Of a stretch of DNA of 64,000 nucleotides, positions 10,161 through 60,769 are shown in pieces. The first letter of the stretch is position 1. Every line of letters starts with the position of its first letter. Made by a program: the position numbers and the translations under genes. A model generated the notes under the pieces. That model did no database searches and was not told the origin of the DNA. It worked only from the letters and a program-made list of their open reading frames with translations. The stretch comes from Patescibacteria group bacterium (GTDB taxonomy: Bacteria; Patescibacteriota; Patescibacteriia; Magasanikbacterales; GWA2-37-8). The stretch covers positions 1-64,000 of the forward strand of contig SCQK01000013.1 in assembly GCA_004321885.1 (NCBI GenBank). Reading direction: 5' to 3'.

Positions 10161-11702
10161 ATGTTAAACAAATTCTACATCACCACCACCATACCTTACG
10201 CCAACGCGGACCCGCACATCGGGTTTGCTTTGGAAATTTTATACGCCGATATCATGGCGCGCTATAGGCGTCTCTTGGGTGATGACGTATATTTTCTCAC
10301 CGGCACCGACGAGCACGGACAGAAGATGTTGAAAACCGCCAAAGAAGCCGGCCAACCGGTGGAAAAGTTTGCCGCGGAAAAATCCGCCAAGTTCCAAAGT
10401 TTGGCGGACCAGTGCAATATCAGCAACAACGATTTTATCCGTACAACCGAGGAGCGGCATATTAAACGCGCGAAAAAGTTTTGGGAACTGGCGCAGAAAA
10501 ACGGCGACATTTACAAAAAACAATATTCCGGTTTGTATTGCGTGGGCTGCGAGTCGTTCAAGACCGAAAAAGACTTGATGGATGGCAAGTGTTCGCTCCA
10601 CAATACAGCGCCCGAAATACTTACCGAAGAAAATTATTTTTTCCGTTTGTCACGTTTTCAGAAATCGCTGGAAAAATTATTCAAAAAAAATAAAAGTTTC
10701 GTTTATCCGGCCAGCCGCTACAATGAGATGCAAAATGTTTTGCGAAGCGGGCTGGAAGACATAAGCATTTCCCGCGAAAAGAAAAAATTACCATGGGGGA
10801 TAGAAGTGCCCGGCGACGCGGAACAAGTGATGTACGTGTGGTTTGACGCGCTCACCAATTACATCACCGCTTTGGGCTGGGGTTCGGCGGACGAAAGTTT
10901 GTTCAAAAAATACTGGCCGGCCGACGCGCACGTCGTCGGCAAAGACGTCAACCGTTTTCACTCTTTGCTCTGGCCGGCGATGCTGTTATCGGTGGGAATT
11001 GATTTGCCCAAGCAAATCGCGGTGCACGGATTTATTTACGTAGACGGACAAAAGATGAGTAAGTCGCTGGGCAACGTGGTCAACCCCGATGAACTTTCGG
11101 CAAAATATCCGCTGGACAGCGTCCGCTATTTTTTCGCGCGCGAAATACCTTTTGACAACGACGGCGATTTTACCAATGAAAAATTCGTTGAAAGATATAA
11201 CGCCGACCTGGCCAACGGCATCGGCAATCTTACCAGTCGCGTGTTGACAATGGTGGAAAAAACCGGCGGTGTCGTGCCAGCCGCCGAAAAGAAAAACGCC
11301 AAATGGCAGAGTCTGGTTACAAAAACCTGGAAAGAATACGCGGGATTTTTGGCCCAGTGGCGTTTTGACCGCGCCTTGGAAACCGTCTGGAAGTTTGTGT
11401 CTTTTTGCGACCAGACCATTTCCGAAAAACAGCCGTGGAAAATGGTCAAACAACTGTCATTCCCGCGAAAGCGGGAATCCATGTCGGAATTGGAAGATTT
11501 ACTTTTTTATCTCTGCGAATCATTGCGCCAAATCGCGGTAATGCTCTTGCCGTTTATGCCCGACACGACGGACAAAATTTTTGTCCGGTTGGGTCTGGAC
11601 GCCGGCAAAGAACTGGCCAAATCGTTTTCCGAATTGCGGACCTGGACCGATATTTCTGGCAACAAAATTAGCAAAGGCGAACCATTGTTCCCAAGAATTT
11701 AA
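10161..11702 (+). CDS. metG: Methionyl-tRNA synthetase (core only, no C-terminal tRNA-binding domain)
   Basis: HIGH-class motif 'PYANADPHIGF', KMSKS 'KMSKSLGN', Zn knuckle 'CVGCESF...C'. A short in-frame hairpin insert at 11455-11480 encodes 'LSFPRKRESMS'. Confidence 0.9.
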   Translation: MLNKFYITTTIPYANADPHIGFALEILYADIMARYRRLLGDDVYFLTGTDEHGQKMLKTAKEAGQPVEKFAAEKSAKFQSLADQCNISNNDFIRTTEERHIKRAKKFWELAQKNGDIYKKQYSGLYCVGCESFKTEKDLMDGKCSLHNTAPEILTEENYFFRLSRFQKSLEKLFKKNKSFVYPASRYNEMQNVLRSGLEDISISREKKKLPWGIEVPGDAEQVMYVWFDALTNYITALGWGSADESLFKKYWPADAHVVGKDVNRFHSLLWPAMLLSVGIDLPKQIAVHGFIYVDGQKMSKSLGNVVNPDELSAKYPLDSVRYFFAREIPFDNDGDFTNEKFVERYNADLANGIGNLTSRVLTMVEKTGGVVPAAEKKNAKWQSLVTKTWKEYAGFLAQWRFDRALETVWKFVSFCDQTISEKQPWKMVKQLSFPRKRESMSELEDLLFYLCESLRQIAVMLLPFMPDTTDKIFVRLGLDAGKELAKSFSELRTWTDISGNKISKGEPLFPRI

Positions 11703-11754
11703 TAATGTCATTGCGACCCCCGACGTCACGTCGGGGGGAAGCAATCCCACGCGT

Positions 11755-12279
11755 ATGTCTTTATTTGATATTTTCCTCCTCATCATCATCGCCGGGTTCG
11801 GACTCTATGGCATGTGGTTCGGACTGGTGCGCGCCGTGGGCCGCCTTATCAGTTTGGTGGTCGGTTTGTATTTGGCCGGCAAATACTACGAACCCATGGC
11901 CAACTGGCTGATGAATTTCACCGGCTGGAAACCCAATTTTTCCAAGGTGCTTGTTTTTATTATCGCCTTTATCATTATTTCCCGGCTGGTAGGGCTGGTA
12001 TTTTGGTTTTTGGAAAAGGTGTTCAGTATTTTTACGCGCCTGCCGGTGATAAAAAGTTTGGACCGGCTTTTGGGTTTGGTTTTTGGTTTGTTGGAAGGAG
12101 CGATAATTCTGGGCGTGATTTTTTATTTCATCGCCCGTTTTCCGGTGAGCAAATGGCTGATGGATCAGCTCGTCGCGTCCGCGGTGGCGCCCTACACTGT
12201 TAAAATCGCGTCGTTTTTATGGCCGCTTCTGCCCGAAGCCCTGCGCGTGCTCCAAAGCGCGGTAAAAGGAATTTTGTGA
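11755..12279 (+). CDS. cvpA: CvpA-family membrane protein (colicin V production protein-like)
   Basis: ATG at 11755 follows the repeat element at 11706-11748. Four TM helices. The upstream part of ORF 11581..12279 overlaps metG and the repeat. Confidence 0.6.
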   Translation: MSLFDIFLLIIIAGFGLYGMWFGLVRAVGRLISLVVGLYLAGKYYEPMANWLMNFTGWKPNFSKVLVFIIAFIIISRLVGLVFWFLEKVFSIFTRLPVIKSLDRLLGLVFGLLEGAIILGVIFYFIARFPVSKWLMDQLVASAVAPYTVKIASFLWPLLPEALRVLQSAVKGIL

Positions 12280-13127
12280 TAGACACTCATTGCCACGTAC
12301 AATTTAAGGCGTTTGCCAAAGACAGCGATGAGGTGATAAAGCGATGCGCCGAGAAGGGCGTTGTTTTAAATGTGGTTGGCACGCAAAAAGACACCAGCGC
12401 TATGGCCGTGAAGTTCGCGGAAAAATACGATAATATTTTCGCCACGGTGGGCTTGCATCCCATTCATACCTGCTCCACCGAAGTTGACGAGGAGGAAATT
12501 ACTTTTAAGTCGCGAGAAGAAGAATTTGATTACGAATACTACAAAAAACTCGCCTCTCATCCGAAAGTTATCGCGATAGGGGAGTGTGGGCTGGAGCTTT
12601 TTCATTTACCAAAAAAAATAGACAAGGATGATTGCCTGAAAACACAAAAGAAAAATTTTATCGCGCAAATTGATTTGGCGCGAGAACTGGATTTGCCGCT
12701 GGTGATTCACGTGCGCGACGCGTACGAAGAGACATTGTCTGTCATTGCGAACGAAGTGAAGCAATCCCATCCGTTAAAGGGCGTCATTCATTGCTACTCG
12801 TCCGACTGGCCGACCGCCCAAAAATTTTTAAACCTTGGATTTTACATCGGTTTCACTTCCATCATCACCTTTCCGCCCCGCAAAACAAACCCCAAGCCGG
12901 ATTTTGACCTGGTGGAAGTGGTAAAAAATTGTCCGCTGGACAAAATTTTGATAGAAACCGACGCGCCCTACCTGGCTCCGCAGGCGTATAGGGGCAAACG
13001 GTGCGAACCGTGGATGGTGGAGGAAGTAGCCAAGAAAATCGCGGAAATAAAGGGTTTAAGCTTCAAAGAAGTGGTTGAAATCAGCGAAAATAACGCAAAA
13101 AAACTTTTCAACAAGCTAAAATCTTGA
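12219..13127 (+). CDS. tatD: TatD-family metal-dependent DNase/hydrolase
   Basis: Motifs 'IDTHCH', 'GECGLE', 'HVRDA', 'ETDAPY'. Start is uncertain: ATG 12219 overlaps cvpA, while GTG 12276 overlaps only the cvpA stop. Confidence 0.8.
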   Translation: MAASARSPARAPKRGKRNFVIDTHCHVQFKAFAKDSDEVIKRCAEKGVVLNVVGTQKDTSAMAVKFAEKYDNIFATVGLHPIHTCSTEVDEEEITFKSREEEFDYEYYKKLASHPKVIAIGECGLELFHLPKKIDKDDCLKTQKKNFIAQIDLARELDLPLVIHVRDAYEETLSVIANEVKQSHPLKGVIHCYSSDWPTAQKFLNLGFYIGFTSIITFPPRKTNPKPDFDLVEVVKNCPLDKILIETDAPYLAPQAYRGKRCEPWMVEEVAKKIAEIKGLSFKEVVEISENNAKKLFNKLKS

Positions 13128-13163
13128 CCTTTTCAAGGTTTTTTAGTAGAATATTGTCGCACT

Positions 13164-13394
13164 ATGAGCGACCGCAAGTATTACATGTTTGGTTTGAAAA
13201 TCGCCGGCGACTTCGGGATAAGCATTGCCGCGCCCGTGGTGTTGTTCGCTTTGTTGGGGCAATATCTGGATGAGAAATACAACACGGGTCCATGGCTCTT
13301 AATTGTCGGTTTTGTTTTGGCCGCGGCCATCTCGGCGAAACTTATTTACAAAAAAGCGAAAAGGTACGGAGATGAGTATCAGAAAATGAAATGA
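13164..13394 (+). CDS. AtpZ/AtpI-like small membrane protein preceding the atp operon
   Basis: 76 aa, two TM helices, immediately upstream of atpB. Confidence 0.5.
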   Translation: MSDRKYYMFGLKIAGDFGISIAAPVVLFALLGQYLDEKYNTGPWLLIVGFVLAAAISAKLIYKKAKRYGDEYQKMK

Positions 13395-13437
13395 CCCCTC
13401 CCTAACCCTCCCCTTAGCAAGGGGAGGGGAAACACTT
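13395..13437. repeat. GC-rich C-tract/G-tract hairpin repeat carrying the SD, immediately before the atpB ATG (family copy)
   Basis: 'cccctccctaaccctccccttagcaaggggaggggaaacactt|ATG'. Same architecture at 1336-1376, 8660-8686, 10116-10148, 17207-17249, 21164-21204, 38877-38933. Confidence 0.7.
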
Positions 13438-14211
13438 ATGCACATACCCACACTGGCTCCTGAAACACTATTTCACGTCGGTCAGTTCCCAGTCACGAAC
13501 ACGATAATAAATGTTTGGCTGGCCATAGTTATTTTTTTGATAATCGGTCTGTGCTTGCGCCGGCGTTTGGGCGTGCGGCCGGGCAAGATGCAAAACTTCA
13601 TTGAATATTTTTTGGAAATACTGCTGGGCTATTTTGACCAGGTTACCGGCGATCGGAAAAAAACCATGAAATTTCTTCCGCTGGCCGGTTCCATTTTTTT
13701 CTTCATCCTGCTTTCCAACTGGCTGGGCCTTATTCCCGGCACCGGCAGTATCACCTTTGGCGGCAAAATGCTTTTGCGCCCCGCCAACACCGATCTCAAC
13801 CTCACGGTTTCCATGGCTTTGGTTTCGGTTGTGGCCTCGCATTTGTTTGGTCTGATTACCGTGGGTGTTTTCACGCATTTGAACAAATTTGTCCAGATCG
13901 GCACTTTGATAAAAAGTTTTCGCAAAGGGCCGATGGCAATTTTTACCGCCATCATTGAAGTCGCGGTAGGTTTTATAGAAATAATCAGCGAGATGGCCAA
14001 GGTACTGTCGCTCTCACTCCGGTTGTTCGGTAATATTTTCGCCGGCGAGGTGCTGATGACCGTGATGAGCAGTTTGGTCGGCTTACTCGTGCCCACGCCC
14101 TTTATGTTGTTGGAACTGCTGGTCGGTTTGATACAAGCGGCGGTGTTTACCATGTTGACCTTGGTGTATTTGACGGTACTGACCACCGAACCGGCGCATG
14201 AAGAACATTAA
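13438..14211 (+). CDS. atpB: F0F1 ATP synthase subunit a
   Basis: Conserved 'LSLRLFGNIFAGE' helix carrying the essential Arg. 257 aa. Confidence 0.9.
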   Translation: MHIPTLAPETLFHVGQFPVTNTIINVWLAIVIFLIIGLCLRRRLGVRPGKMQNFIEYFLEILLGYFDQVTGDRKKTMKFLPLAGSIFFFILLSNWLGLIPGTGSITFGGKMLLRPANTDLNLTVSMALVSVVASHLFGLITVGVFTHLNKFVQIGTLIKSFRKGPMAIFTAIIEVAVGFIEIISEMAKVLSLSLRLFGNIFAGEVLMTVMSSLVGLLVPTPFMLLELLVGLIQAAVFTMLTLVYLTVLTTEPAHEEH

Positions 14212-14360
14212 AGTGTCATCCTGAACTTGTTTCAGGATCTCCAATCGCGAACGGAGATGCTGAAATAAATTCAGCATGACAATTAATAATTAATGCGGCG
14301 TTACGCGAGGTAAAATAATTCATTTCCTCCTCGACGTAAGTCGCAAGAAAGGTCCATAAT

Positions 14361-15203: not shown

Positions 15204-15211
15204 TAATAGAT

Positions 15212-15598: not shown

Positions 15599-15669
15599 TG
15601 TCATTGCGAGGAGCGAAGCGACGAAGCAATCCCATGAGATTGCTTCGACCCTGCGGGTCTCGCAATGAC
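15599..15669. repeat. Full-length copy of the 'TGTCATTGCGAGGAGCGAAGCGACGAAGCAATCC...CTCGCAATGACA' hairpin element (intergenic, atpH-atpA)
   Basis: Outer stem gtcattgcgag/ctcgcaatgac, inner stem gaagcaatc/gattgcttc. Shorter copies sit at 11706-11748, 11455-11480, 17904-17931, 21411-21447, 21679-21712, 21892-21974, 32910-32940, 55979-56027, 58629-58650 and 60107-60164. Confidence 0.7.
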
Positions 15670-15683
15670 AAACTAAAATTTAT

Positions 15684-17204: not shown

Positions 17205-17249
17205 TTTTCTCCCCCTTTATAAGGGGGAGACGAAGAGGGGGTAAACATT

Positions 17250-18209
17250 ATGGCGGTTAACACCAAAGCAATTAAGCGCCGCATCAAATCCGTGGGCAGT
17301 ACGCGCAAGATCACGAAAGCCATGGAGATGGTAGCCGCGGCCAAAATGCGCAAAGCTGTGAACGCGGCTTTGGACACCCGCGCCTATGCCAAACTGGCCT
17401 GGGACTTGCTTGTTGATTTGGCGAAATCGCAAAAGGCAAAGATCCCGTTGTTGGACGTGCGGCCCGTGAAAAAACTTTTAGTGGTGCTTATCACTTCCAA
17501 CCGCGGGTTGTGCGGCAGTTTCAACGCCAATATTATCCGCAAAACCGCCGAGCAATTGAAAAATCCGGCCAACATCAGCCGACAGCGGGTAAAAGGCAAA
17601 CAAGTTGAGCCCGAGCAAAGCATTGAAGTGGATATTATCGGCATCGGCAAAAAAGGCGCGGATTTCGCGCGCAAAACCGGCCATCATTTGGAGGCGTCAT
17701 TTTCCGAATTCAGCGACACGCCCGCCATGGCCGACGCCCTGCCCATCAGCCGGATGATTATCGGCGATTACGAAAACAAAAAGTACGATAAAGTGGTGGT
17801 GGCTTACACTGATTTCAAATCCACCATCGCGCAAATAGCCAAGTTGCGACAAGTACTGCCGATTTCCGAACAGGATTTGGAGAAGATGATGATTGACAGT
17901 GAAGTCATTGCGAGCGAAGCGAAGCAATCCCAAACACAAACGCTGGAACTCTCTGAATACTTATTTGAACCGAACAAACTTGATGTTTTGAAAATAATTT
18001 TACCGCGTCTGGTGGAAGTGCAGATTTTTCAAGCCATGCTGGAATCGGCGGCTAGCGAACACAGCAGTCGCATGCTCGCTATGAGAAACGCCAGCGACGC
18101 GGCCGAGGACATGATTAAAGAATTAAATTTGAATTTTAACAAAGCGCGGCAGGCGGCGATCACGCAGGAAATCGCGGAAATCGCTGGCGGCGCCGCGGCA
18201 TTGGATTAA
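17250..18209 (+). CDS. atpG: F0F1 ATP synthase subunit gamma, carrying an in-frame 'GTCATTGCGAGCGAAGCGAAGCAATCC' element
   Basis: N-terminal 'IKRRIKSVGSTRKITKAMEMVAAAKMRKA' and C-terminal 'ITQEIAEI'. The repeat at 17904-17931 encodes 'EVIASEAKQSQ'. Confidence 0.9.
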   Translation: MAVNTKAIKRRIKSVGSTRKITKAMEMVAAAKMRKAVNAALDTRAYAKLAWDLLVDLAKSQKAKIPLLDVRPVKKLLVVLITSNRGLCGSFNANIIRKTAEQLKNPANISRQRVKGKQVEPEQSIEVDIIGIGKKGADFARKTGHHLEASFSEFSDTPAMADALPISRMIIGDYENKKYDKVVVAYTDFKSTIAQIAKLRQVLPISEQDLEKMMIDSEVIASEAKQSQTQTLELSEYLFEPNKLDVLKIILPRLVEVQIFQAMLESAASEHSSRMLAMRNASDAAEDMIKELNLNFNKARQAAITQEIAEIAGGAAALD

Positions 18210-18212
18210 TTT

Positions 18213-20664
<2,452 letters not shown>

Positions 20665-21137: not shown

Positions 21138-21210
21138 TCTGGTATAGTAAGTAAAGCAAAGTTTTCCTCCCCTTGATAAGGGGAGGACTAAGGAGGGGTA
21201 ATAATGCGCT

Positions 21211-21344: not shown

Positions 21345-22037
21345 ATGAACGCGCGAAAGGTGTATAAGCACCTTTTCAAGAAATACGGACCACAAGGTTG
21401 GTGGCCACTTTGTCATTCCGACCGAGCGAAGCGAGTGGAGGAATCCCTTTTTGAAATAGCAGTCGGAGCGATACTTACCCAAAGCACCGCCTGGCGCAAT
21501 GTGGCCGTGGCGATTGCGAATCTGGACAAAGCCAAAGCCCTCACGCCCAAGGCGATAATAAAAATGCCGAAAGCACGACTCTGTAAGTTGATAAAGCCGG
21601 CCGGATATTTCAATCAAAAATGCAAGAAGTTGAAAATATTTGCCAAATGGCTGATGGAAAATTGCGGCGGCGACGTCCTGTCATTGCGAGGAGCGAAGCG
21701 ACGAAGCAATCCTTTGGAAATCAGGAATAAATTATTGTCTATCTGGGGCATCGGCAAAGAAACCGCTGATTCAATCATTCTTTACGCCCTGAACAAACCG
21801 ATTTTCGTGATTGACGCCTACACTCGCCGTCTCTGCGCAAAGTTTAGCATAAAATTCAAGGAATACGACGAGTATCGCGAGTTTTTTGAAATGTCATTGC
21901 GAGGAGCGCAGCGACGAAGCAACCCCAAACGTTTAAGCAGGGGATTGCTTCGGCCTGATGGCCTCGCAATGACATACCAAGAATACCACGCCCTTATCGT
22001 CGCCTCAGGCAAAGACAAACACAAGTACGTATTATGA
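21345..22037 (+). CDS. HhH-GPD superfamily DNA glycosylase (endonuclease III-like, no Fe-S cluster) carrying three in-frame repeat-element insertions
   Basis: 'YGPQGWWP', HhH 'IWGIGKETADSIILYAL', 'VIDAYTRRL'. Inserts at 21411-21447, 21679-21712 and 21892-21974 encode 'LCHSDRAKRVEES', 'SLRGAKRRSNP' and 'SLRGAQRRSNPKRLSRGLLRPDGLAMT'. Confidence 0.65.
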   Translation: MNARKVYKHLFKKYGPQGWWPLCHSDRAKRVEESLFEIAVGAILTQSTAWRNVAVAIANLDKAKALTPKAIIKMPKARLCKLIKPAGYFNQKCKKLKIFAKWLMENCGGDVLSLRGAKRRSNPLEIRNKLLSIWGIGKETADSIILYALNKPIFVIDAYTRRLCAKFSIKFKEYDEYREFFEMSLRGAQRRSNPKRLSRGLLRPDGLAMTYQEYHALIVASGKDKHKYVL

Positions 22038-32882: not shown

Positions 32883-32947
32883 CTACTTCATTAAACAACA
32901 AAATAACATTGTCATTCTCCCGATTAAGTCGGGGGAATCCAGCATAT

Positions 32948-33418
32948 ATGACAGATGAAAAAGTTCACTATCTCACTCCGCAAGGATTGGACGCGCTGAA
33001 AAAAGAATACGACGAGCTGAAAAACATAAAAATTCCGGAAATCGCGAACCGGATAGACGAGGCCAAACAGCAGGGCGACCTATCGGAAAACGCCGAATAT
33101 CACCAGGCCAAAGAAGATATGGCCTGGGCCCAAGGCCGGCTGATGGAGGTGAGATACGTACTTGACCGCGCCCAAGTAATGGAGCCGGGCAGTAAAAAAA
33201 GCGAAGTGGTGAACGTGGGCAGTACCGTGAAGACAAAGGTGAATGGCAACGAGAGACAGTACACCATCGTGGGCCCCCAGGAGGCTGACCCGCTCGCAGG
33301 CAAAATTTCCAACGAGTCTCCGTTGGGCGCGGCGTTTTTGGGCGCCAAGGCCGGGGACAAGGTAGCTGTCAGAACTCCGGCCGGAGAGCAGATTTATAAA
33401 ATTATTGAAATTAATTAA
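32948..33418 (+). CDS. greA: Transcription elongation factor GreA (copy 1)
   Basis: 'DLSENAEYHQAKE' and C-terminal FKBP-like domain. ATG at 32948. Confidence 0.85.
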   Translation: MTDEKVHYLTPQGLDALKKEYDELKNIKIPEIANRIDEAKQQGDLSENAEYHQAKEDMAWAQGRLMEVRYVLDRAQVMEPGSKKSEVVNVGSTVKTKVNGNERQYTIVGPQEADPLAGKISNESPLGAAFLGAKAGDKVAVRTPAGEQIYKIIEIN

Positions 33419-38874: not shown

Positions 38875-38933
38875 TACCCCTCCTATCCTCCACCTTAATT
38901 AAGGGGGGGTAAGGTAGGGGGGTAAATATTATT

Positions 38934-40939: not shown

Positions 40940-41088
40940 GGGGAATAGAGGAGGGGGTGTGGACAAGTGCGTTTGACCATATTTATAAAGAGTTATATAA
41001 TTGAGTATAATATCTCTTACACTCAATTCCGTCGCAGTAAAACTGCTCCGGAAGTGTAAGAGTCGGTTAAGTTAGTATTCTATTACGT

Positions 41089-42042
41089 ATGTCTATAAAT
41101 GCACTTCCCTACCTGGATGATTTTATTTTGAACTTGAAAGCAAATAATTTTTCGGAAGAAACCGCGTATAATTACGAACGCGACCTCAATACTTTTGAGA
41201 TTTTTTTGAGTGAAGACCTAAAAAAAACATTTAACAAAGTAGATAAAACTGACCTGCTGAGATTTAAGGCCTATTTGATGTCTTCTGACCGTAAAACGGC
41301 TAAAACCGTCAAAACAAGCAAAAAATTAAGCAGTTATTCTATAAATCGCATACTATCTTCGTTGAGGTCGTATCTGAAATTTTTAGAAGATATGGACCAC
41401 AACCCTCCCGTCTCCCCTGCCGCGGTAAAATTAATCAAGAACATAAAAAAACACGCGCAGGTGCCGGAATTTGAAGAAATCATAAAAGTGATTGAGGCGC
41501 CGATGAAATACGAAGAAGACGAACGAATAGCTCTACGAAATCGGGCGATATTAGAGACACTGTTCGCTACAGGCATGCGTATTTCGGAACTTTTGTCGTT
41601 AAAAGTCGTTCAAATTGACCAAACCGGACGCATCTATATACTGGGAAAAGGCAAAAAACAACGTTTTGTCTACCTGACACCCAGAGCGCTCGCGCACCTA
41701 AAAAATTACCTGGCGAAACGAAACAGTACTTCTGAAATGCTATTTGTCCCCTACCGCGGCAGAAATAACAAAGAAAAAAATAAAAAAATATCGCCTAATT
41801 ATCTTCAATTTAAGATTAAGCGATACAGAGAGTTGCTTGATATCAATATTCCCATCAGCGCGCACACCTTGCGACACGGGTTTGCCACCTATCTGGCTGA
41901 AAACGGGGCAAACCCGGCCGCCATCCAGATATTGCTTGGCCACGAGTCGCTGGATACGACCACTCGCTATGTTCACGCTTCAGACAAATTCGCGGAGAAA
42001 ACTCACCACGATTTTCACCCTCTCTTTAAGGACAAAAACTAA
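41089..42042 (+). CDS. Tyrosine site-specific recombinase (XerC/XerD-like)
   Basis: 'ETLFATGMRISELLSL', catalytic 'HTLRHGFATYL' and 'LLGHESLDTTTRYVH' (R..HxxR..Y). Confidence 0.85.
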   Translation: MSINALPYLDDFILNLKANNFSEETAYNYERDLNTFEIFLSEDLKKTFNKVDKTDLLRFKAYLMSSDRKTAKTVKTSKKLSSYSINRILSSLRSYLKFLEDMDHNPPVSPAAVKLIKNIKKHAQVPEFEEIIKVIEAPMKYEEDERIALRNRAILETLFATGMRISELLSLKVVQIDQTGRIYILGKGKKQRFVYLTPRALAHLKNYLAKRNSTSEMLFVPYRGRNNKEKNKKISPNYLQFKIKRYRELLDINIPISAHTLRHGFATYLAENGANPAAIQILLGHESLDTTTRYVHASDKFAEKTHHDFHPLFKDKN

Positions 42043-43074: not shown

Positions 43075-44295
43075 TTAAGGCAAATACGGCTGCGGGTCAA
43101 CGGGAATGCCGCTCTGTCTAATTTCAAAATGCAAATGCGGACCCGTAACAAACGGCCCGGCGCCGGCTGTACCCGGGGTGCCGCCGCTGTAACCGATAAT
43201 ATCGCCTTTGGCCACAAACTGGTCTTCGGCCACGCTGATACTGCTCATGTGCCCGTATAAAGTGGACAAATTTCCGGGATGCACGATAAGTGTGTAGCTG
43301 TAACAGCTGGCGCTGGAACACCGCTTGGCCCGCGCCACATAACCCGAGGCCGAGGCCTGAATGGGCGTCCCCTGCTTGGCGCGAATATCAATGCCGCTGT
43401 GTTCAAAGACCTTGCGATAGGGGTATTCCGGATCGTGAAACAGGGCCGTGATAAACCGGCCCGGGACCGGCCAGTCAAAATCAGTACTGCCCGCCGATAA
43501 TTTGTTGCTGGCCGCCAATTTCTTTCGCACCTCGTTCTCAAAACCCTTGACCTCGTCTTCTATCTGCTGATACTGCCGCCGCAGGCTGGTAAGCAGGGTC
43601 TGGTATTGCATTTCCGAACTTTTTGTCTGAATAAGCAAACTCTGTTTGACAAAAGTATCTTCCAGCAAGTCTCCCTTCCTGCCTTCCAATTCTTCCTTCA
43701 AATTATCGTACATTTTTTTTCTGTTCTCCACCTGCTCTTTTTTTGACTGTAAATCTTCTTTGGCCAGTCTGATGGTTTTGGCCGAGCGTCCCAAATCAGT
43801 ATAAACATTTTCCAGATATTGAACTTGATTATAAAATTCGGAAAAACTTTTGTTCGTGAGCAAAATTTCCAAGTAGCCTTTTTGCTTATCGGCGTTGATT
43901 TCCCTCATCATTTTCGCTATTATTCTTTTTTCTTTCTCAATAGCCTGCTGTTTCGCCGTTATAGACAGCTCCAAGGCCTCAATTTCCAGCTTGGCCTGCT
44001 TGATTTTTTCTTCGGTAAGCTCAATTTCCGTTTTGAGCTGGTCCACATGATTGTCAAGGATGCTCAACTGATTGCGCAATGACACGGCCTCGGTCTGCTT
44101 TTGCCTGATACTGCGCTTGTAGCTTTCTATTGTCTTTTCCAATTCCTTAATCTTGTCTTTTCGCTCCTGAATTTTGCTGTTCAGCTCTTTTATCTCTTCG
44201 CTCGCCTGCCCCTCTTGCGCCAAAACAGAAAAATTTTGCCAAAGCGGCAAAGCAATAATAATCGCTCCCAAAATTACGACAAGCCTTAATCTCAT
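43075..44295 (-). CDS. M23 family metallopeptidase with N-terminal coiled coil (EnvC-like)
   Basis: Signal/TM, long coiled coil, C-terminal 'HSGIDIRA...GYSGGTPGTAGAGPFVTGPHLHFEIR' (HxxxD...HxH). Confidence 0.8.
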   Translation of the reverse strand: MRLRLVVILGAIIIALPLWQNFSVLAQEGQASEEIKELNSKIQERKDKIKELEKTIESYKRSIRQKQTEAVSLRNQLSILDNHVDQLKTEIELTEEKIKQAKLEIEALELSITAKQQAIEKEKRIIAKMMREINADKQKGYLEILLTNKSFSEFYNQVQYLENVYTDLGRSAKTIRLAKEDLQSKKEQVENRKKMYDNLKEELEGRKGDLLEDTFVKQSLLIQTKSSEMQYQTLLTSLRRQYQQIEDEVKGFENEVRKKLAASNKLSAGSTDFDWPVPGRFITALFHDPEYPYRKVFEHSGIDIRAKQGTPIQASASGYVARAKRCSSASCYSYTLIVHPGNLSTLYGHMSSISVAEDQFVAKGDIIGYSGGTPGTAGAGPFVTGPHLHFEIRQSGIPVDPQPYLP

Positions 44296-52912: not shown

Positions 52913-55141
52913 ATGCTCAAAAAAATCGCTTGCCTTTTTTTGATTACGACCTGGATCCCAGTTTTCGCTGGAATGACAGTGTCCTTTTCCCCTGCCCTCG
53001 CCCAAACGGAATTTAATCCGCATTTTATTATCTCCGACGAAGAAATGCAGACCCTGGCGAACTGGACCCGCGACGACGTGCAAAAATTTCTGGACGGCAA
53101 GGGCAGTTATCTGCGCGCCTTTTCCACCGAAGATGTGTCCGGCGCCGTCAAACCAGCGGCCGATATTATCTACGACGCGGCGCGCGCCTACACCATCAAT
53201 CCAAAATATCTGCTCGTTACTTTACAAAAAGAGCAGTCGCTGATTACCGACGACGCGCCCAGCCAAAAACAGCTTGATTGGGCCACGGGCTACGCGGTCT
53301 GCGATTCCTGCGACCGCGGCGACCCGGCCGTGGCCAAACACAAGGGCTTTGGCAAGCAGGTAGACGACGCGGCCGGCATCATCCGCTGGTATTACGACAA
53401 TCGCGACCGCGGCATTGTCAAAAAAAAAGACCAGGCCGTCAGCATAGACAACCAATCGGTCATCCCGCAAAGCTGGGCCACGGCTTTTTTGTACACCTAT
53501 ACCCCGCACTTGCACGGCAATAAAAATTTTTGGAAAATCTGGCAGACCTGGTTTGCGCAAAACTACCCCAACGGCACCCTGCTGGTCGGCGAAACCACGG
53601 GCGACACCTATCTGATTCAAAACAACACTAAACGCAAATTCAAAAATAAATCCACCCTGCTGTCGCGCGCCGACCCGGAAATGATAATCACCGTGCCCGA
53701 AAGCGAACTCTCCAACTACGCCACTGGTCCGGAAATTTCTTTCCCAAATTTTTCGCTCTTGCGCTCTCCGGCGAGCGCCTATTACCTGCTTGACTACGAC
53801 ACCATCCGCCCGTTTGCCGGCGAAGAAGTCATCCGCTATCACGGCTACAATCCGCAAGAAATCATAGACGTTTCCGAAGCGGACCTGACCGGCCTGACTC
53901 TCGGTACCACCATTTACGCCACGTCCACTCCGGTGCAGGGCGTGGTCTATCAAATCACAGATCTAAAAAACGCCCTTTACATGCTCAAAGACGGCACGCT
54001 CTATCCGATTATAGATAAAAAAATGGTGGAGGCGAATTACAAAAATTTGAAACTGGAAAAAAAGAAGCTAACGGACATAAAAAATTATCCGGTCGCCAAC
54101 CAGCCTTTGCAGTTCAAAGACGGCACCCTTATCAGAATAAAAGACAGCGAAACGATTTACGTGATAGAAAACGGCAAAAAGCGCCGCCTGGCCGATGAAG
54201 ACACTTTCCTGGCCATGGGCTATAAATACGCCAACGTCATATCGGTGGAATTGCTGACTGCTTTGAATATCTTTGACGGCGAGCCGATATTCATCAACGG
54301 CAGTCTGCTTTCGGCCAAAGATAAATTTCTGGGCGACAACCAACAGGCTGTCATTGACAATTACGGCGCCAAGCTCCCCTCATATCTGGTGGCCGAGTAT
54401 CCCAGCGGCCGCATCTTATCCGGCAAAAATATAGACGCCAGGCGCCCCATTGCCTCGCTCACCAAAGCCATGGTCGCTTACGAAGCCATATACGAAAATT
54501 TAGCGCCCGCGAAAATCACGGCCTACAGCGCCAAGAAATACCGCTCCGAAGGCTATGCCCTAAAAGTGCGTGACGGAGCCAAATTCAAAAATGCCGACCT
54601 GCTGAGCGCCGCGCTCATCGGCTCTTACAACAATATTGCCAAAGCCGTCGTGGGCGCCACGGGCCTGGACGAAGACGCGTTTTTGGCCGCGCTCAATCGC
54701 CGTCTTAGCGACTGGGGGGCGGATAACACGAAAATCGCCGACCTCACCGGCTTGGATGAAAAAAACTTTTCCACGGCCCGCGACCTGCTTCGCGTTTACA
54801 CGAAAGTTTTGAAAAACGAAACCATCGCCAAGTCCCTGGGCACTAAAAAATTTATCCTGCGCAATGTCTCGGGCAAATCGTACGGTTCGCTCAAATACAC
54901 AGTGCAAAATCGCAATAAATTATTTTTCCAAAACAATAAAAATTATAAAATTATCGCCAGCAAAACCGGTTATACGGACGAGGCCGGCGCCGTGCTTTTT
55001 ATGGTAATAGAATCCAAAAAAACCAAAAAGAAATACACCATCATCACTCTCGGCGACAAAAATTATAATTATCGGTTCAAAGAGCCGGACAAAATCGCCA
55101 GCTGGATTTCTTCCGACAACGCGAATTTAGCCAGCAATTAA
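52913..55141 (+). CDS. Secreted protein with C-terminal D-alanyl-D-alanine carboxypeptidase (PBP5/S11-like) domain and large N-terminal domain of unknown function
   Basis: Signal peptide. Motifs 'SLTK' (SxxK), 'SYNN' (SxN), 'KTGYT' (KTG) in the last ~270 aa. Confidence 0.7.
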   Translation: MLKKIACLFLITTWIPVFAGMTVSFSPALAQTEFNPHFIISDEEMQTLANWTRDDVQKFLDGKGSYLRAFSTEDVSGAVKPAADIIYDAARAYTINPKYLLVTLQKEQSLITDDAPSQKQLDWATGYAVCDSCDRGDPAVAKHKGFGKQVDDAAGIIRWYYDNRDRGIVKKKDQAVSIDNQSVIPQSWATAFLYTYTPHLHGNKNFWKIWQTWFAQNYPNGTLLVGETTGDTYLIQNNTKRKFKNKSTLLSRADPEMIITVPESELSNYATGPEISFPNFSLLRSPASAYYLLDYDTIRPFAGEEVIRYHGYNPQEIIDVSEADLTGLTLGTTIYATSTPVQGVVYQITDLKNALYMLKDGTLYPIIDKKMVEANYKNLKLEKKKLTDIKNYPVANQPLQFKDGTLIRIKDSETIYVIENGKKRRLADEDTFLAMGYKYANVISVELLTALNIFDGEPIFINGSLLSAKDKFLGDNQQAVIDNYGAKLPSYLVAEYPSGRILSGKNIDARRPIASLTKAMVAYEAIYENLAPAKITAYSAKKYRSEGYALKVRDGAKFKNADLLSAALIGSYNNIAKAVVGATGLDEDAFLAALNRRLSDWGADNTKIADLTGLDEKNFSTARDLLRVYTKVLKNETIAKSLGTKKFILRNVSGKSYGSLKYTVQNRNKLFFQNNKNYKIIASKTGYTDEAGAVLFMVIESKKTKKKYTIITLGDKNYNYRFKEPDKIASWISSDNANLASN

Positions 55142-55969: not shown

Positions 55970-56032
55970 TTCGTTCGCTGTCATTCTAGCCCCTGCCTAC
56001 CGGCAGGCAGGCGCGAGCAGGAATCCCACACT

Positions 56033-57922
56033 ATGCTTCTGCAAATTATCCCCGCACGGAGAATGCCTTTTTCTCTTCCGTTTTTGGATTACGCGGCTCC
56101 CGCTGAACTGGAAGCGCGCGTCAAAATCGGCCAGCTGGTGAAAATTCCGTTTCGCTCGCGCGAAGAATTTGGCATTATTAAATCAATCGGCGGCGATGCG
56201 CCGCCAAAAAAAGTCAGGCCCATTTTGGAAATTTTTTATGATACGCCTCTTCTGTCGCAGGCGCAATTAAATTTTTTAGAAGAGATATCGGCTTTTTACG
56301 GCACGCCCTTGTCTTTTCTGTTAAAAACCAATCTGCCGCCGCTCTCGGAAAAAAAATTAAAAAAAGAACTGGACAAAAAAAACTTCAGGTCCGGCGCGGC
56401 GGTCAGTAAAAAACCTAAAAAGCCAGGGGTGTTTTATTACGCCGACAAAGGAGAAAAACAAAAACTATTTATTGACGCGCCGGCTAAACGAGGACAAACT
56501 TTAATTATAGCGCCCGAATTGGAGCAAATTACCGAAATATGGAATCTTTTGTCCGAAGAGCGGCGCGCCAAGTGCGCGGCCATTTCAGGCCGACTAAGCG
56601 AAAAACAATTTTTCGCCGTCTGGATGGATATTTTTTTTGGACGCAAAAACATCGTCATCGGCACGCGCCGGGCACTGTTTTTGCCCTGGCGAAACTTGAC
56701 GCGCGTAATCATTGACGACGAAGCCAATGAAAGCCATAAAAGCTGGGACATGGCCCCGCGCTTTCACGCCAAAGACGCGGCCCTGTTTCTGGCCGCCAAG
56801 CACGGCGCGGCTCTCCAAATTATGTGCCACACGCCCTCGGTGGAAACGTATTTTTTCGCGCAAAAGAACGTTTACAAAACAAAAGACGCGCCCAAAACGT
56901 TCGCTGACTCTGCTACCATCGTGGATATGTGCGGGGAACGTAGGGCCGGCAATTACACGTTTATCAGCCAATACTTGCGCGACAAAATCACGGCTCTAAA
57001 CGGAGACGCCTTTATTTTTCTCAACCGCAAAGGCGCCGCCGCGGCCGTGGGTTGCCGCGATTGCGGCAATGTCATAAAATGTCCGTCTTGCGGCCGCTCG
57101 CTGGTGTATCACGAAACCGATAAATCATTGCGTTGCCATTTTTGTAAAACCCTGAGCCGCATGCCCCCGTCTTGCGCGGTTTGCCGTGGCGTAAATATGG
57201 CCTTATACGGCATTGGCACCCAGCTCGCCGAAAACACCCTGCGCAAGCTCGCCCCTGACAAGCGAGTTATCCGCATTGATTCGGACGACGGCGAGCTTAG
57301 CGAGTTAAAAGCGCCGGGAAATAAAATTATCATCGGCACGCAACTGGCCTGGAATAAAATTGACTGGTCAGCGCTCAAACTGGCCGCTTTTTTGGACGCT
57401 GACTCGTCTCTTTTTATTCCCGAATTTAAGATAGATGAAAATGTTTGGTATCTACTGCGAGACGCGCAGTTTCGTTTGGGCTGTCATTCCGGCCTTGTGC
57501 CGGAATCCACAATCAATCCGGAATTAATCATTCAAACAGGCCATCCGGAATATCCTGTTTTTTCCGGGCTGGCCAAGCCGGCCAATTTTTATGAACAGCA
57601 GATAAAAATCAGACAGCTCTTGGGCTTTCCGCCTTTTAATTTTTTGCTTAAAATATACAACAGCGAGCCGGGCGAAGCGCTGGCCAAAAGCCAGGCCGAG
57701 GCTTTTTTGGCCGAACTGCGCGCCTTGACAAGAGGCATGCCGCGGGTTAATATAACCGGCCCGCTGGCGGCGCCGTTTCGCCGCGGCAAAGATTACTCGC
57801 AAATAATTTTGCTAAAAATCGGGTTTGCCAACTACAAGCGCGACACGGCCAAAATTTCGTCTTTGGCGGCAACGCGCGGCTGGAAAGTAGACCCAAATCC
57901 AAATACCTTATTAGCCCTATGA
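56033..57922 (+). CDS. priA: PriA-like primosomal protein N' with degenerate helicase motifs
   Basis: N-terminal 3'-DNA-binding domain 'LDYAAPAELEARVKIGQLVKIPF'. Four-CxxC zinc module 'CPSCGRS...CHFCKT...CAVCRG'. Where Walker A would sit it reads 'DAPAKRGQT' (no GK[TS]) and motif II reads 'IIDDEANESH' (not DExH). Confidence 0.75.
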   Translation: MLLQIIPARRMPFSLPFLDYAAPAELEARVKIGQLVKIPFRSREEFGIIKSIGGDAPPKKVRPILEIFYDTPLLSQAQLNFLEEISAFYGTPLSFLLKTNLPPLSEKKLKKELDKKNFRSGAAVSKKPKKPGVFYYADKGEKQKLFIDAPAKRGQTLIIAPELEQITEIWNLLSEERRAKCAAISGRLSEKQFFAVWMDIFFGRKNIVIGTRRALFLPWRNLTRVIIDDEANESHKSWDMAPRFHAKDAALFLAAKHGAALQIMCHTPSVETYFFAQKNVYKTKDAPKTFADSATIVDMCGERRAGNYTFISQYLRDKITALNGDAFIFLNRKGAAAAVGCRDCGNVIKCPSCGRSLVYHETDKSLRCHFCKTLSRMPPSCAVCRGVNMALYGIGTQLAENTLRKLAPDKRVIRIDSDDGELSELKAPGNKIIIGTQLAWNKIDWSALKLAAFLDADSSLFIPEFKIDENVWYLLRDAQFRLGCHSGLVPESTINPELIIQTGHPEYPVFSGLAKPANFYEQQIKIRQLLGFPPFNFLLKIYNSEPGEALAKSQAEAFLAELRALTRGMPRVNITGPLAAPFRRGKDYSQIILLKIGFANYKRDTAKISSLAATRGWKVDPNPNTLLAL

Positions 57923-58413: not shown

Positions 58414-58425
58414 CGCGACGAATTT

Positions 58426-59352
58426 ATGACTATTAGCACAATATTTTTTGGAACACATAATTTTGCGGCGAAAATTTTGGCAGAGCTTATCAAAAACGGC
58501 TCTTTTGACATTACACTGGCAGTCACCCAGCCGGACAGACCGGCGGGAAGAAAACAAGACCTGGAAATTCCGGCCGTGAAACTTTTAGCCGAAAAAAACA
58601 ATATTCCGGTCGCCCAACCGGCCGGTTTGTCATTGCGAGGAGTAATCCCTTTTCCTGATTTCTATGACCTGAACATCCTCTGCCAATACGGAAACATAAT
58701 CACCAAAGAAATTTTAGACAAATCAAAATACGGTTCAATCAATGTCCACCCTTCGCTATTGCCAAGATACCGCGGGGCCTCACCCATCCAATCCGCGCTC
58801 GTAAATGGCGAAACCGAAACCGGCGTTTCCATAATTTTGATGGATGAGGAGCTTGACCATGGCCCGATTTTGGCGCAAAAAAAAATGAACATTGGCGATG
58901 ATGATAATTTTGTTTCTTTGAGCGCGAAATTGTCGTATCTATCCGCCCCTCTTTTGGTAAATACGGCCCTTGATTTTGTAAACGGAAAAATTACTCCCGG
59001 GCCACAAAACCACGACCAAGCGACTTTTTGCAAACAACTCTCGCGCGAGGATGGTAAAATTGATTTTAATAAATCCGCCAAAGAAATTTACAATCAGTGG
59101 CGCGGCCTCGCGCCGTGGCCCGGGGTTTGGGCAAGCTGGGAAAACAAACGTCTCAAATTTATTAATATCAGCCCCCTTCCCCTTTATAAGGGGGATGTGG
59201 GGAGGGGGTATGTAAGGGGGCACAAACTCATCATCGCCTGCGCCCAAGGCGCTATTGAAATTTTAGAACTCCAACTTGAAGGAAAAAAGCCCATGGTCGC
59301 GGCCGCGTTTATAAACGGCTATGGCAAAATAAACGGCGCTATTTTACGCTAA
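58426..59352 (+). CDS. fmt: Methionyl-tRNA formyltransferase, with two in-frame repeat insertions
   Basis: 'IFFGTHNFA', 'NVHPSLLPRYRGASPIQ'. Inserts: 58629-58650 ('SLRGVIP') and 59171-59220 ('SPLPLYKGDVGRGYVRGH'). Confidence 0.85.
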   Translation: MTISTIFFGTHNFAAKILAELIKNGSFDITLAVTQPDRPAGRKQDLEIPAVKLLAEKNNIPVAQPAGLSLRGVIPFPDFYDLNILCQYGNIITKEILDKSKYGSINVHPSLLPRYRGASPIQSALVNGETETGVSIILMDEELDHGPILAQKKMNIGDDDNFVSLSAKLSYLSAPLLVNTALDFVNGKITPGPQNHDQATFCKQLSREDGKIDFNKSAKEIYNQWRGLAPWPGVWASWENKRLKFINISPLPLYKGDVGRGYVRGHKLIIACAQGAIEILELQLEGKKPMVAAAFINGYGKINGAILR

Positions 59353-59353
59353 T

Positions 59354-60769
59354 ATGCAGTCCAAAAAACTTTTTCTTGTTTTTTTAGGGCTCTACGCGCT
59401 CCTGCGCGTCTTTTCCTATTTCTTCAGCCCTGAAACCCCGCTTTACTCGGCCAATCCGGTTAATACTTTGGCCGCCGCGCTGGTTCTTTTCACGGCGATT
59501 TATTTTCTGCTCAAAAAAGACCAGCGCGGCTGGCTGATTGTGGCCGGTGAGCTAATTCTCGGCGGCGGTGGAAATTACCTGGCTGTCGGGCCATTATCCC
59601 TACGGACGTCGCTTCTTTTTGCTTCACTGCTAATTTACTTCGCTCAACTTAAAAGGGGAGGGGCAGGCCACCACACCAAAGATTTTGGTGTGGTGGCAGG
59701 GGGTGGGGTTTGGGCAATATTTTTACTGATTGTAGTCGCCATCATCGCGGCCGGCCGCGGCCTATATCTGGGCCACGCTACTCGCCAAATTTTTTCCGAC
59801 ACGCTTCCCTATTTTTTCCTGCTTTATTATTTTCCGCTTCGCGATTTAATTAAATCTGACAATTTCAAGTCCGTCTGTAAGCAAATGCTCTTCGCGGCTA
59901 TTGTTGGCAACGCGCTTTTTATGCTTCTTACCTATGCCGGCTTTTCCAGCGGCCTGTTCGCTTTGCAGGATGAGTATTACCATTGGTTCCGCGATGTGGC
60001 TCTGGGTAAAATTACCGACATCGGCTTTAATTCCTTTCGCATAATTTTAGACGAACATTTATTGCTCGTGCCGCTGCTGCTGGCGTTTCTTTCGTCTGTC
60101 ATTGCGACCCCCTCATCAAGTGTGGGGCTAAAGGCTGCCACGCTCGCAATGACATTCGTCCTCTCTATTAATATTACCCGCATTTACATTCTGGCGTTCG
60201 TTGTCGGTCTGCTGTTCTTATTTTCAAAAACAAACTGGAGGCGCTGGCTGGCAATTTCATCGGCTTCGCTGGTTTTATTTTTTATCTTTTTCACCTCGCT
60301 TCATCTTATTTCCAGCCGCGGCCAAAATTTGGGCTGGGAATATTTTGGCCTGCGCCTGCAAAGCGTAATGGCGCCGCAAATAGAAGAAAGTTCACTTTCG
60401 CGCGTATTGCTTTTGCCCAAAATTTGGGAAAAAATAAAAGCCCATCCCCTCTTGGGTAATGGACTGGGCGACACGGTCACTGTTTACAGCCCGGCGCTCA
60501 AACAAACCATTACCACTCCGCACTTTGATTGGGGCTATCTGGAAATCTGGGCGGAAGTGGGCTTACTCGGTTTGTTTATCTGGATATTATTGCTCACAAA
60601 AATAATTCCCTCCCCTATCAGGGGAGGGACAGAGGGTGGAGTAACGGTCGCGCCACTCGCCTCCCTTCTTGTCATCAATCTCACCTCACCTGCTATTTTC
60701 CACGCTTTCGGCGTTATCTTTCTTACTTTTTACTTCACTCATTATGGCTCAAATCAAAATTCTGATTGA
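59354..60769 (+). CDS. Polytopic membrane protein, O-antigen ligase/Wzy-like, with three in-frame repeat insertions
   Basis: About 12 TM helices. Inserts at 59654-59714, 60107-60164 and 60606-60640. Family assignment is weak. Confidence 0.45.
   Translation: MQSKKLFLVFLGLYALLRVFSYFFSPETPLYSANPVNTLAAALVLFTAIYFLLKKDQRGWLIVAGELILGGGGNYLAVGPLSLRTSLLFASLLIYFAQLKRGGAGHHTKDFGVVAGGGVWAIFLLIVVAIIAAGRGLYLGHATRQIFSDTLPYFFLLYYFPLRDLIKSDNFKSVCKQMLFAAIVGNALFMLLTYAGFSSGLFALQDEYYHWFRDVALGKITDIGFNSFRIILDEHLLLVPLLLAFLSSVIATPSSSVGLKAATLAMTFVLSINITRIYILAFVVGLLFLFSKTNWRRWLAISSASLVLFFIFFTSLHLISSRGQNLGWEYFGLRLQSVMAPQIEESSLSRVLLLPKIWEKIKAHPLLGNGLGDTVTVYSPALKQTITTPHFDWGYLEIWAEVGLLGLFIWILLLTKIIPSPIRGGTEGGVTVAPLASLLVINLTSPAIFHAFGVIFLTFYFTHYGSNQNSD

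Follow-up and report, generated by a model that had tools for sequence, protein, structure and literature searches.

The DNA analyzed here is a 64-kb stretch of a Patescibacteria genome (assembly GCA_004321885.1, contig SCQK01000013.1, positions 1 to 64,000; hereafter the window, always meaning the whole stretch), which comprises housekeeping genes at 48.6% G+C and is ~95% coding, with 4.7% non-coding sequence. The source genome lies near Magasanikbacteria, its nearest other AtpG relatives being 74–78% identical. The window shares a gene order, namely iron-sulfur genes, an rsmI-like gene, metG, cvpA, tatD, the atp operon, an HhH-GPD glycosylase gene, and an ABC transporter, with relatives from Hainich groundwater (L001/L002/L003; GCA_964356015.1) and with one from JGI 3300029288 (L004, a 963-kb contig of which ~21 kb was compared). 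Dispersed through these genes and their spacers is a short, oriented, palindromic repeat, present as 17 units in 15 elements (0.27 units/kb), four of which are inverted pairs. Judged by sequence, these repeats fit as members of the CGTC/TGTC-tagged REP superfamily (PMC3733652) and of the NTS/Ssn-related motifs (PMC11893778), and not as a new family.

A preliminary description of this DNA had proposed a dispersed repeat family whose ends are conserved and whose inner hairpins vary, and the counts bear this out: the terminal pattern GTCATTSY-N6-36-RSAATCC finds 11 matches against 0.03 expected by chance, the pattern GTCATTSC-N0-30-GSAATC likewise finds 11 against 0.08, and no shuffle comes near either. 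The layout of a unit is a 5' tag TGTC (once AGTC), AT(N3), a variable inner hairpin, (N3')AT, and then C(C/A). The [T/A]GTC preceding AT is found in all 17 units and gives each its orientation, the closing AT-C is retained in all the intact ones, and the arrangement TGTC-AT...AT-CC(A/C) is seen in every intact unit. The copies, including one probable remnant, are listed below with z for the fold as DNA relative to shuffles.

11455..11481, plus strand: single unit, CC type, TGTCATTCCCGCGAAAGCGGGAATCCA; in metG, read LSFPRKRES; perfect 8-bp DNA hairpin with a GAAA loop, z -4.8.
11706..11748, plus strand: single unit, GC type, with a 21-nt inner hairpin; metG-cvpA spacer; z -5.2.
12740..12768, plus strand: single unit, GC type, inner segment ACGAAGT; in tatD, read SVIANEVKQS.
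14214..14281: inverted pair of a sister subtype, stems ATCCTGAA/TTCAGGAT and ATGCTGAA/TTCAGCAT; between atpB and atpE; 68-nt hairpin, z -5.5.
15599..15670: inverted pair of GC-type units, tags outward; abuts the atpH stop codon, upstream of atpA; z -7.2.
17903..17931, plus strand: single unit, GC type, with a GCGAAGC mini-hairpin and the AGTC tag; in atpG, read VIASEAKQS.
21411..21447, plus strand: single unit, CC type, with a GA/mini-hairpin/G·A layout; in the HhH-GPD glycosylase gene, read CHSDRAKRVEES.
21679..21712, plus strand: single unit, GC type, identical to 15599-15632; in the HhH-GPD gene, read SLRGAKRRSNP.
21892..21974: inverted pair of GC-type units; in the HhH-GPD gene, read SLRGAQRRSNPKRLSRGLLRPDGLAMT (SLRGAQRRSNP...GLAMT); z -6.6.
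32910..32953, plus strand: single unit, ATTCTCCCGA/TCGGGGGAAT stem ending at 32940, then an inverted ATGACA; greA leader; z -3.3.
44070..44084, minus strand: probable remnant TGTCATTGCGCAATC, retaining the tag and both stem halves with the inner part gone; inside a minus-strand gene.
52943..52978, minus strand: lone unit at the 5' end of a D-Ala-D-Ala carboxypeptidase (Peptidase_S11) gene, read WIPVFAGMTV.
55979..56027, plus strand: degenerate unit with a long inner hairpin; fills the spacer from a LigB-family gene to priA; fold not significant, z -0.9.
57482..57508, plus strand: single unit, CC type, TGTCATTCCGGCCTTGTGCCGGAATCC (8 bp, 5-nt loop); in priA, read CHSGLVPES; z -5.0.
58628..58650, plus strand: truncated unit, TGTCATTGCGAGGAGTAATCCC; in fmt, read SLRGVIP.
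60097..60154: collapsed inverted pair with two outward TGTCATTGCGA tags and a 36-nt core without the GAAGCAATCC halves; in a Wzy_C gene, read VIATPSSSVGLKAATLAMT (VIATPSS...TLAMT); flanked by a 6-nt direct repeat, TTCGTC; z -4.1.

Ten of the eleven copies in the preliminary list were placed correctly to within 1 nt, and the remaining one, given as 60107-60164, was shifted by 10 nt relative to the actual inverted pair at 60097-60154. All of the listed copies are real, but the list was incomplete: it lacked 12740-12768 and 57482-57508 on the plus strand, and 52943-52978 and the remnant at 44070-44084 on the minus strand. The last of these is probably a collapsed copy, one of the 11 matches to the terminal pattern with 0.08 expected. 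A twelfth, degenerate relative had been placed at 14207-14278; the relative exists, but it spans 14214-14281 and consists of two inverted units of a sister subtype, in which GTCATCCTGAA..TTCAGGATC is paired with GTCATGCTGAA..TTCAGCATC, and the sister-subtype pattern has two matches against 0 expected. The units at 15599 and 21679 are identical over 34 nt, and that at 21892 differs from them by 2 nt, while the flanks of the three are unrelated.

The units fall into two subtypes that differ in how their stems are built. Those of CC type at 11455, 57482, and 32910 form perfect hairpins of 8–10 bp with loops of 4–5 nt (z -3.3 to -5.0 for the fold as DNA), the last having 10 bp, a 5-nt loop, and one G·T pair in the stem. 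The GC type, the main one in the window, has the layout ATTGC-GA-[X]-GAA-GCAAT, and among 212 GC-type units collected from the window and all the fetched loci there are 137 distinct X segments, the commonest being GCGAAGC, GCGCAGC, GCGGAGC, and GCGTAGC, i.e., GCGNAGC. A second class of X has the form GGAGC-loop-GCGAC with tandem G·A pairs, and compensated variants are also present (ACGAAGT, GTGAAAC, and GGAACGAAGTGAC). A stem of at least 2 bp closes the ends of half of the distinct X segments, as against 8% after shuffling. Likewise, a hairpin of at least 5 bp starts exactly at the AT of TGTC-AT in 14 of 40 cases, as against 8% for other four-base tags. The outer stems covary across the window and L001 (ATTGC/GCAAT, ATTCC/GGAAT, ATCCT/AGGAT, ATGCT/AGCAT, ATTCT/AGAAT, and ATCCC/GGGAT). 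The base before GTC among the 212 units is T in 173 and C in 36, and inspection of the sequence just upstream of the tags revealed no consistent motif. The hairpin predicted for GC-type units rests on the covariation and on the known G·A and GNA motifs; GCGNAGC is a DNA-specific motif described as ‘extraordinarily stable mini-hairpin DNA’ (PMC13037366).

The inverted pairs consist of two units with their tags facing outward and fold into hairpins of 58–83 nt (z -4.1 to -7.2), with 12-nt terminal inverted repeats TGTCATTGCGAG...CTCGCAATGACA. These are what had earlier been taken for full-length copies closing on themselves into a hairpin of about 70 nt; the long hairpins are borne out, but the forms are inverted pairs of a unit of ~27–43 nt. 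That the short copies might be truncations of the paired forms finds no support in this analysis.

Coding sequences hold 10 of the 15 elements, and all three forward phases are used. The earlier statement that three forward and two of three reverse frames are open is correct for the single unit, but not for the inverted pairs at 15599-15670 and 21892-21974, each of which has one open forward frame. The peptides SLRGAKRRSNP and VIASEAKQS given for the genic copies are correct by translation, and these copies are indeed read through in frame without truncating their hosts, being stop-free in metG, tatD, atpG, the HhH-GPD gene, priA, fmt, and the Wzy_C gene. The junctions of host and copy read DSEVIASEAKQSQTQ in AtpG, KQLSFPRKRESMSE in MetG, and LGCHSGLVPESTIN in PriA, and alignments to solved homologs place the inserts in gaps or variable loops. 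At 52943-52978, WIPVFAGMTV would lie in the hydrophobic N-terminal segment of the carboxypeptidase, its translation depending on the true start codon.

Ortholog alignments qualify the earlier wording that the copies are inserted in these genes, in that metG and the HhH-GPD gene do gain length, but the copies in atpG and fmt, and the first HhH-GPD copy when set against L004, replace variable-loop residues with no gain. The MetG copy is a 7-aa insertion absent from the MetG of L001 and L004, and that of PriA is a 7-aa insertion relative to the Klebsiella PriA structure 4nl4. The TatD insert is absent in L004, and L001 has a 29-aa inverted pair at the matching site. Of the three elements in the HhH-GPD protein, the first (21411) adds 10 aa relative to Helicobacter pylori MagIII (1pu6) with no net gain over L004, the second (21679) adds 4 aa relative to both L004 and 1pu6, and the pair (21892) adds 16 aa relative to L004. 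The AtpG copy occupies a hypervariable loop with no net gain in length, its peptide being shared by none of 17 homologs, and the fmt copy falls in a variable linker with no gain in length over the formyltransferase structure 4iqf. Since the matching sites of relatives lack copies, the family is to be regarded, as the preliminary description had held, as an element that is duplicated or mobile, and not as a protein motif under conservation.

Non-coding sequence makes up only 4.7% of the window but holds the remaining 5 of the 15 elements (P = 4e-4). In a window that is ~95% coding, this excess in spacers indicates that most genic insertions have been purged by selection and that those observed are the survivors. 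The intergenic copies fill the metG|cvpA, atpB|atpE, and atpH|atpA spacers and the leaders of greA and priA, in agreement with the earlier placement of copies in the two leaders and in the metG/cvpA and atpH/atpA spacers. They directly adjoin the stop codons of metG, atpB, and atpH; 52 nt separate the metG stop (11702) from the cvpA ATG (11755), and the metG|cvpA unit accounts for 43 of them. The inverted ATGACA that follows the 32910 unit holds an ATG (32948), and the downstream open reading frame (ORF) codes for GreA; this ATG is probably the greA start codon, and the end of the repeat may be what supplies it. The atp operon also carries a Fic/DOC-family gene (18213-19289) between atpG (stop at 18209) and atpD (start at 19297), from which it is separated by just 3 and 7 nt, respectively. 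In L001–L004, no gene occupies this position of the atp operon, which upholds the earlier view of a foreign gene in the operon.

With respect to the strand of the host gene, the lone units are 10 forward and 1 reverse (P = 0.006 for an expected forward share of 0.5, and P = 0.03 for the share of 0.6 that open frames predict), the sole unit in reverse being 52943-52978; intragenic single units in other phyla number 16 and 12 in the two orientations and show no bias. Separately, the GC skew of the window changes sign at ~40000-42000, being positive over 1-40 kb and negative over 40-64 kb, and gene orientation flips there too; this switch at ~40 kb may mark a replication terminus or origin. A replication-linked bias in the orientation of the units is unsupported, as the skew flips near 40 kb and plus-oriented units occur on both sides.

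Comparison with the relatives indicates a strongly uneven distribution: 17 units in the 64 kb of the window, at least 16 in 21 kb of L001, none in 21 kb of L004, and about 4 in the 574 kb of more distant loci that were recovered with the HhH-GPD query and used as a low-density control. From this we infer a lineage-specific expansion, with units multiplied within the lineage of the window genome. The L001 units are partly of different subtypes and mostly pairs with CTCTGTC...GACAGAG spacers. The occupied spacers of the atp operon are atpB|E and atpH|A in the window, atpI|B, atpE|F, atpA|G, and atpG|D in L001, and none in L004, and since those of the window and L001 differ, no conserved regulatory site is implied.

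Empty sites in sister genomes, which the preliminary description had suggested comparing, are provided by L004, which lacks copies at the matching metG|cvpA and tatD sites, its metG|cvpA spacer being only ~5 nt. At this same point (11706-11748 in the window) L001 has a unit (4196-4245) with the same ends and an entirely different inner hairpin. The 21 terminal nt are identical between the window and L001, whereas the surrounding coding DNA matches only in part of the columns. Similarly, the tatD loop is occupied in the window (12740-12768) and in L001 (5276-5360) by elements of different subtypes with identical ends. The three lineages stand at about equal distances from one another, MetG and TatD grouping L001 with L004, and AtpG grouping the window with L001. 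The shared tatD and metG|cvpA sites fit either an ancestral insertion with loss in L004 or repeated targeting. A metagenome search with the HhH-GPD protein for strain variants with or without the insertions returned a best relative of only 51% identity.

The preliminary description had left room for a motif confined to this window, and this is not the case. Exact GC-type ends (TGTCATTGCGA-N5-32-GAAGCAATCC) occur in at least 120 blocks of the genome collection spanning >15 phyla, three Patescibacteria being among those listed. Among the 120 motif-selected blocks listed, five carry an ORF of ~95 aa, with PF01541 as its only domain and units on its flanks; in one of these (L030) the ORF lies between two inverted copies. 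Three further genes for GIY-YIG nucleases, picked by protein similarity alone (P0217, P0139, and P0237) from a JGI metagenome series, a cyanobacterial assembly, and Deferribacter thermophilus, are flanked on both sides, within ~100 nt, by units or pairs. In total, eight GIY-YIG loci (five motif-selected and three protein-selected) are flanked by GTCATTGCGA..GAAGCAATC units, PF01541 being the family confirmed for the flanked ORFs. At L205, the flanking unit (3383, minus strand) equals the window units 15599/21679 except in its first base. This flanking by exact GC-type units points to the GC subtype as the motif cognate to a clade of GIY-YIG proteins. Metagenome contigs of 0.5–3 kb carry many of the closest GIY-YIG homologs (P0121–P0240), as would fit multi-copy, repeat-flanked genes breaking assemblies. 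The GC-type motif was also observed in at least 120 viral or proviral contigs of IMG/VR (L215–L334), sometimes in arrays of 4–6, and one of the 120 viral loci listed has an Ssn-type GIY-YIG ORF.

The nuclease of the characterized Neisseria system is SsnA, a 94-aa single-domain GIY-YIG nuclease that binds and cuts the Neisseria NTS (CGTCATTCCCGCGMAVGCGGGAATCYRG) and Ssn-related motifs (SRMs) only as single-stranded DNA (ssDNA) and only on the tag strand; the cut falls a few nt 5' of the tag and modulates recombination of incoming ssDNA (Chenal et al., 2025; PMC11893778). The ssn gene is typically flanked by the motif, in the manner of an insertion sequence, and 81% of genomes with >200 SRMs encode an Ssn homolog, ~19% being without one (PMC11893778). 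Given these precedents, we regard it as likely that the window copies are oriented ssDNA hairpin repeats of the CGTC/TGTC-tagged REP superfamily (which takes in dRS3/NTS, RPE-4/-6, and the SRMs) with a partner nuclease. Under this proposal, the window genome would carry, or would recently have carried, an Ssn-type nuclease outside the 64 kb, which, by analogy to SsnA, would cut the folded unit as ssDNA 5' of its tag. The units would have multiplied within this lineage. Since the genome is ~95% coding, most landing sites are genes, and only short, stop-free copies in surface loops, linkers, or hydrophobic N-termini would survive, giving the in-frame peptides. We posit the partner nuclease because of the 81% figure, the identity of the units at 15599 and 21679, and the identical ends at metG|cvpA; the identical units and 21-nt ends point to recent copying or to a constraint on the ends.

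Several results weigh against this proposal. There is no GIY-YIG gene in the 64-kb window, no transposase among its ORFs scanned against Pfam, and no Ssn-type ORF in the 574 kb of loci that a query from this genome retrieved. The best 120 of at least 8000 matches to the GIY-YIG profile include none labelled Patescibacteria, a result that is uninformative on this lineage. The published SRM pattern, HGTCWYN(0-2)YYVSBRHN(0-5)WNVSBRGN(0-2)RNCYNB, which is a search heuristic derived from 29 genomes and not a definition, matches only 3 of the 17 units (11455, 32910, and 52978 on the minus strand), and it is at its YY positions that the GC subtype fails. Finally, the GC-type single units fold no better than shuffles under standard nearest-neighbour DNA parameters (z -1.0 to +1.0), which we attribute to these parameters not modelling GCGNAGC. 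The lack of a GIY-YIG gene in the 64 kb, together with the ~19% of SRM-rich genomes without an Ssn homolog and the truncated or degenerate state of the copies at 58628, 55979, 60097, and 44070, would also suit orphan relics of the same superfamily, whose partner nuclease has been lost and whose copies are inert leftovers drifting in tolerant positions. We think this improbable in light of the identity of 15599 with 21679 over 34 nt and the 2-nt difference of 21892, all in unrelated flanks, and of the 21 terminal metG|cvpA nt that are the same in the window and L001.

Somewhat less probable again is an action at the RNA level, in which the copies would serve, possibly alongside a role as DNA, as mRNA hairpins that stabilize or attenuate transcripts between cistrons in the manner of REPs. 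The 10:1 agreement of lone units with the gene strand, the G·T pair in the 32910 stem, and the abutment of copies on the stop codons of metG, atpB, and atpH, comparable to the REPs described between co-directional genes (PMC3733652), all speak for such a role; yet the window and L001 have their atp-operon copies at different sites and L004 has none, the pairs are not followed by a T-run, and units in other phyla lack the orientation bias (16:12). Moreover, GCGNAGC is specific to DNA, SsnA does not bind RNA (PMC11893778), and a search of the window against Rfam at gathering thresholds gave no match, nor did a tRNA scan. We consider it very improbable that the pairs are classical MITEs or REPINs moved by a DDE or RAYT (Y1) transposase, with the single units as their remnants. 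The 12-nt terminal inverted repeats, the occurrence of single and paired forms as in REPs and REPINs, and the TTCGTC repeat flanking 60097-60154 might be read in this way, but terminal inverted repeats are confined to the pairs, a flanking direct repeat of 6 nt is missing from 14 of the 15 elements, and 10 lack any flanking repeat, and the tag is YGTC and not GTAG. No transposase, and none of the Y1 type, was detected among the Pfam-scanned ORFs of the window, and the only gene repeatedly flanked by exact units is that for the GIY-YIG nuclease. As for a conserved protein motif or chance similarity, peptides do recur (SLRGAxRRSNP twice and VIAxExKQS twice), but the DNA in question occurs in each of the three reading phases, in reverse orientation, and also between genes, orthologs lack the peptide, and the 11 matches stand against 0.03–0.08 expected; frame usage and the ortholog alignments exclude this reading, to which we assign a negligible probability.

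The proposal of nuclease-partnered ssDNA hairpins admits a bolder, and in our estimation improbable, extension, viz., that the Ssn-type hairpin system of Patescibacteria is a mobile element, still active and selective for its sites, by which essential proteins acquire short peptides. The doubly occupied tatD and metG|cvpA sites are the one result here that might conceal something new. If the tatD and metG|cvpA hits of the window and L001 were independent, they would imply site targeting, and the Ssn/hairpin pair would constitute a new hairpin-guided insertion system, going beyond a restriction-like modulator of transformation.

The window contains other palindromic repeats distinct from the tagged family. 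A separate G-rich palindromic family, CCCCTT(A/T)T(A/T)AAGGGG(A)GG, presumably the first family of the preliminary description, has most of its copies seemingly at gene boundaries. Its copies are:

1316-1372, 8666-8698, 10119-10151, 13391-13427, 17209-17254, 21164-21202, 25836-25872, 38867-38920, and 59154-59214.

A third palindromic repeat, with the core GCCACCACACCAAAGAATTTGGTGTGGTGGC and G-run flanks, is found at 9719-9774 and 59654-59709, the two copies being 89% identical; it lies inside the rsmI-like methylase gene, where the Pfam match is split in two, and in the Wzy_C gene, and it seems to be one more palindrome lying in frame within genes. An AT-rich inverted repeat of 113 nt at 7664-7776, with 56-nt arms that are 71% complementary, occupies the spacer between an ORF ending at 7665 and nifU; by synteny with L001/L004, this ORF is probably an Aminotran_5 gene.

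What is new here is the patescibacterial host, the high share of in-frame genic copies, and a subtype whose stems are interrupted by G·A and which carries GCGNAGC mini-hairpins. The recently explained class of tagged ssDNA hairpin repeats, known elsewhere with GIY-YIG nucleases as partners, is thereby extended to the ultra-small, host-dependent Patescibacteria, which fits the published enrichment of SRMs in symbionts (PMC11893778). Where intergenic space is scarce, expansion of the repeat leads to tolerated peptides in ATP synthase gamma, MetRS, PriA, TatD, a DNA glycosylase, and others, as in Rickettsia. In genomes of the candidate phyla radiation, such hairpins raise the number of hypothetical peptides counted, fragment assemblies, and interfere with the alignment of proteins. 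Because the GC subtype escapes the published SRM pattern, surveys that use it undercount the family. The architecture of the subtype, with its conserved tag and clamp, tandem G·A pairs, and GCGNAGC, could guide the choice of substrates for Ssn-based ssDNA tools.

Among the closest described systems is that of the SRMs and NTS. Cutting by SsnA needs three nt 5' of the palindrome, binding relies chiefly on the C immediately 3' of it, the identity of the loop is irrelevant, and the stem can be extended (PMC11893778). The invariant GTC, AT...AT, and C of the window units are precisely these functional positions, and their free inner part is the tolerated region. In both, an HGTC tag lies directly 5' of the palindrome, a C follows the hairpin, and single units and inverted pairs occur; unit 11455 equals the NTS consensus except at two end positions. 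They differ in that most window units have a 5-bp outer stem followed by G·A-rich internal loops and a mini-hairpin, and in that about two-thirds of the window elements are intragenic, as against 2% for NTS in Neisseria meningitidis.

The CGTC-tagged REPs, which form four families (CGTC-1 to CGTC-4), have a CGTC tag that is often TGTC, A-T pairs at the first two stem positions, and a CCA tail, occur mostly as inverted dimers, and ‘apparently lack a dedicated transposase’; their in-frame intragenic copies include many in DNA replication/repair and tRNA synthetase genes (Di Nocera et al., 2013; PMC3733652). The window units match them in the tag, the A-T start of the stem, a CCA-like tail, and in-frame copies within metG, priA, tatD, and the HhH-GPD gene; inverted dimers account for four of the 15 elements here. 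The stems of 8–9 bp and loops of 4–5 nt of CGTC-REPs are seen in the units at 11455 and 57482 and nearly so in that at 32910, whereas the GC subtype departs from them with its 5-bp stem, G·A pairs, and GNA mini-hairpin or longer inner hairpin. CGTC-REPs are listed in five phyla, Patescibacteria not being among those (PMC3733652).

The same authors equate CGTC-REPs with Neisseria dRS3 and with Rickettsia RPE-4 and RPE-6 (RPE-4 = CGTC-4, RPE-6 = CGTC-1; PMC3733652), and it is only via this published equation that the window units relate to the RPEs, with which they were compared by description only. Palindromes lying in frame in unrelated housekeeping genes of a host-associated bacterium with a reduced genome, and peptides tolerated by the fold, are common to both. 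RPE-1 (Ogata et al., 2000), which the summary in PMC10969869 gives as ~100-150 bp encoding 30-50 aa, differs in sequence and size from the window units (27-49 nt, 7-12 aa) and pairs (58-83 nt). Lastly, REPs and REPINs resemble the present family in being short hairpins with a tag, found alone or paired in inverted orientation as long hairpins, mostly near gene 3' ends, with a linked small gene flanked by the repeat, but differ in their GTAG tag, as opposed to YGTC here, and in the linked gene, which codes for the Y1 (HUH) transposase RAYT, as opposed to a GIY-YIG nuclease.

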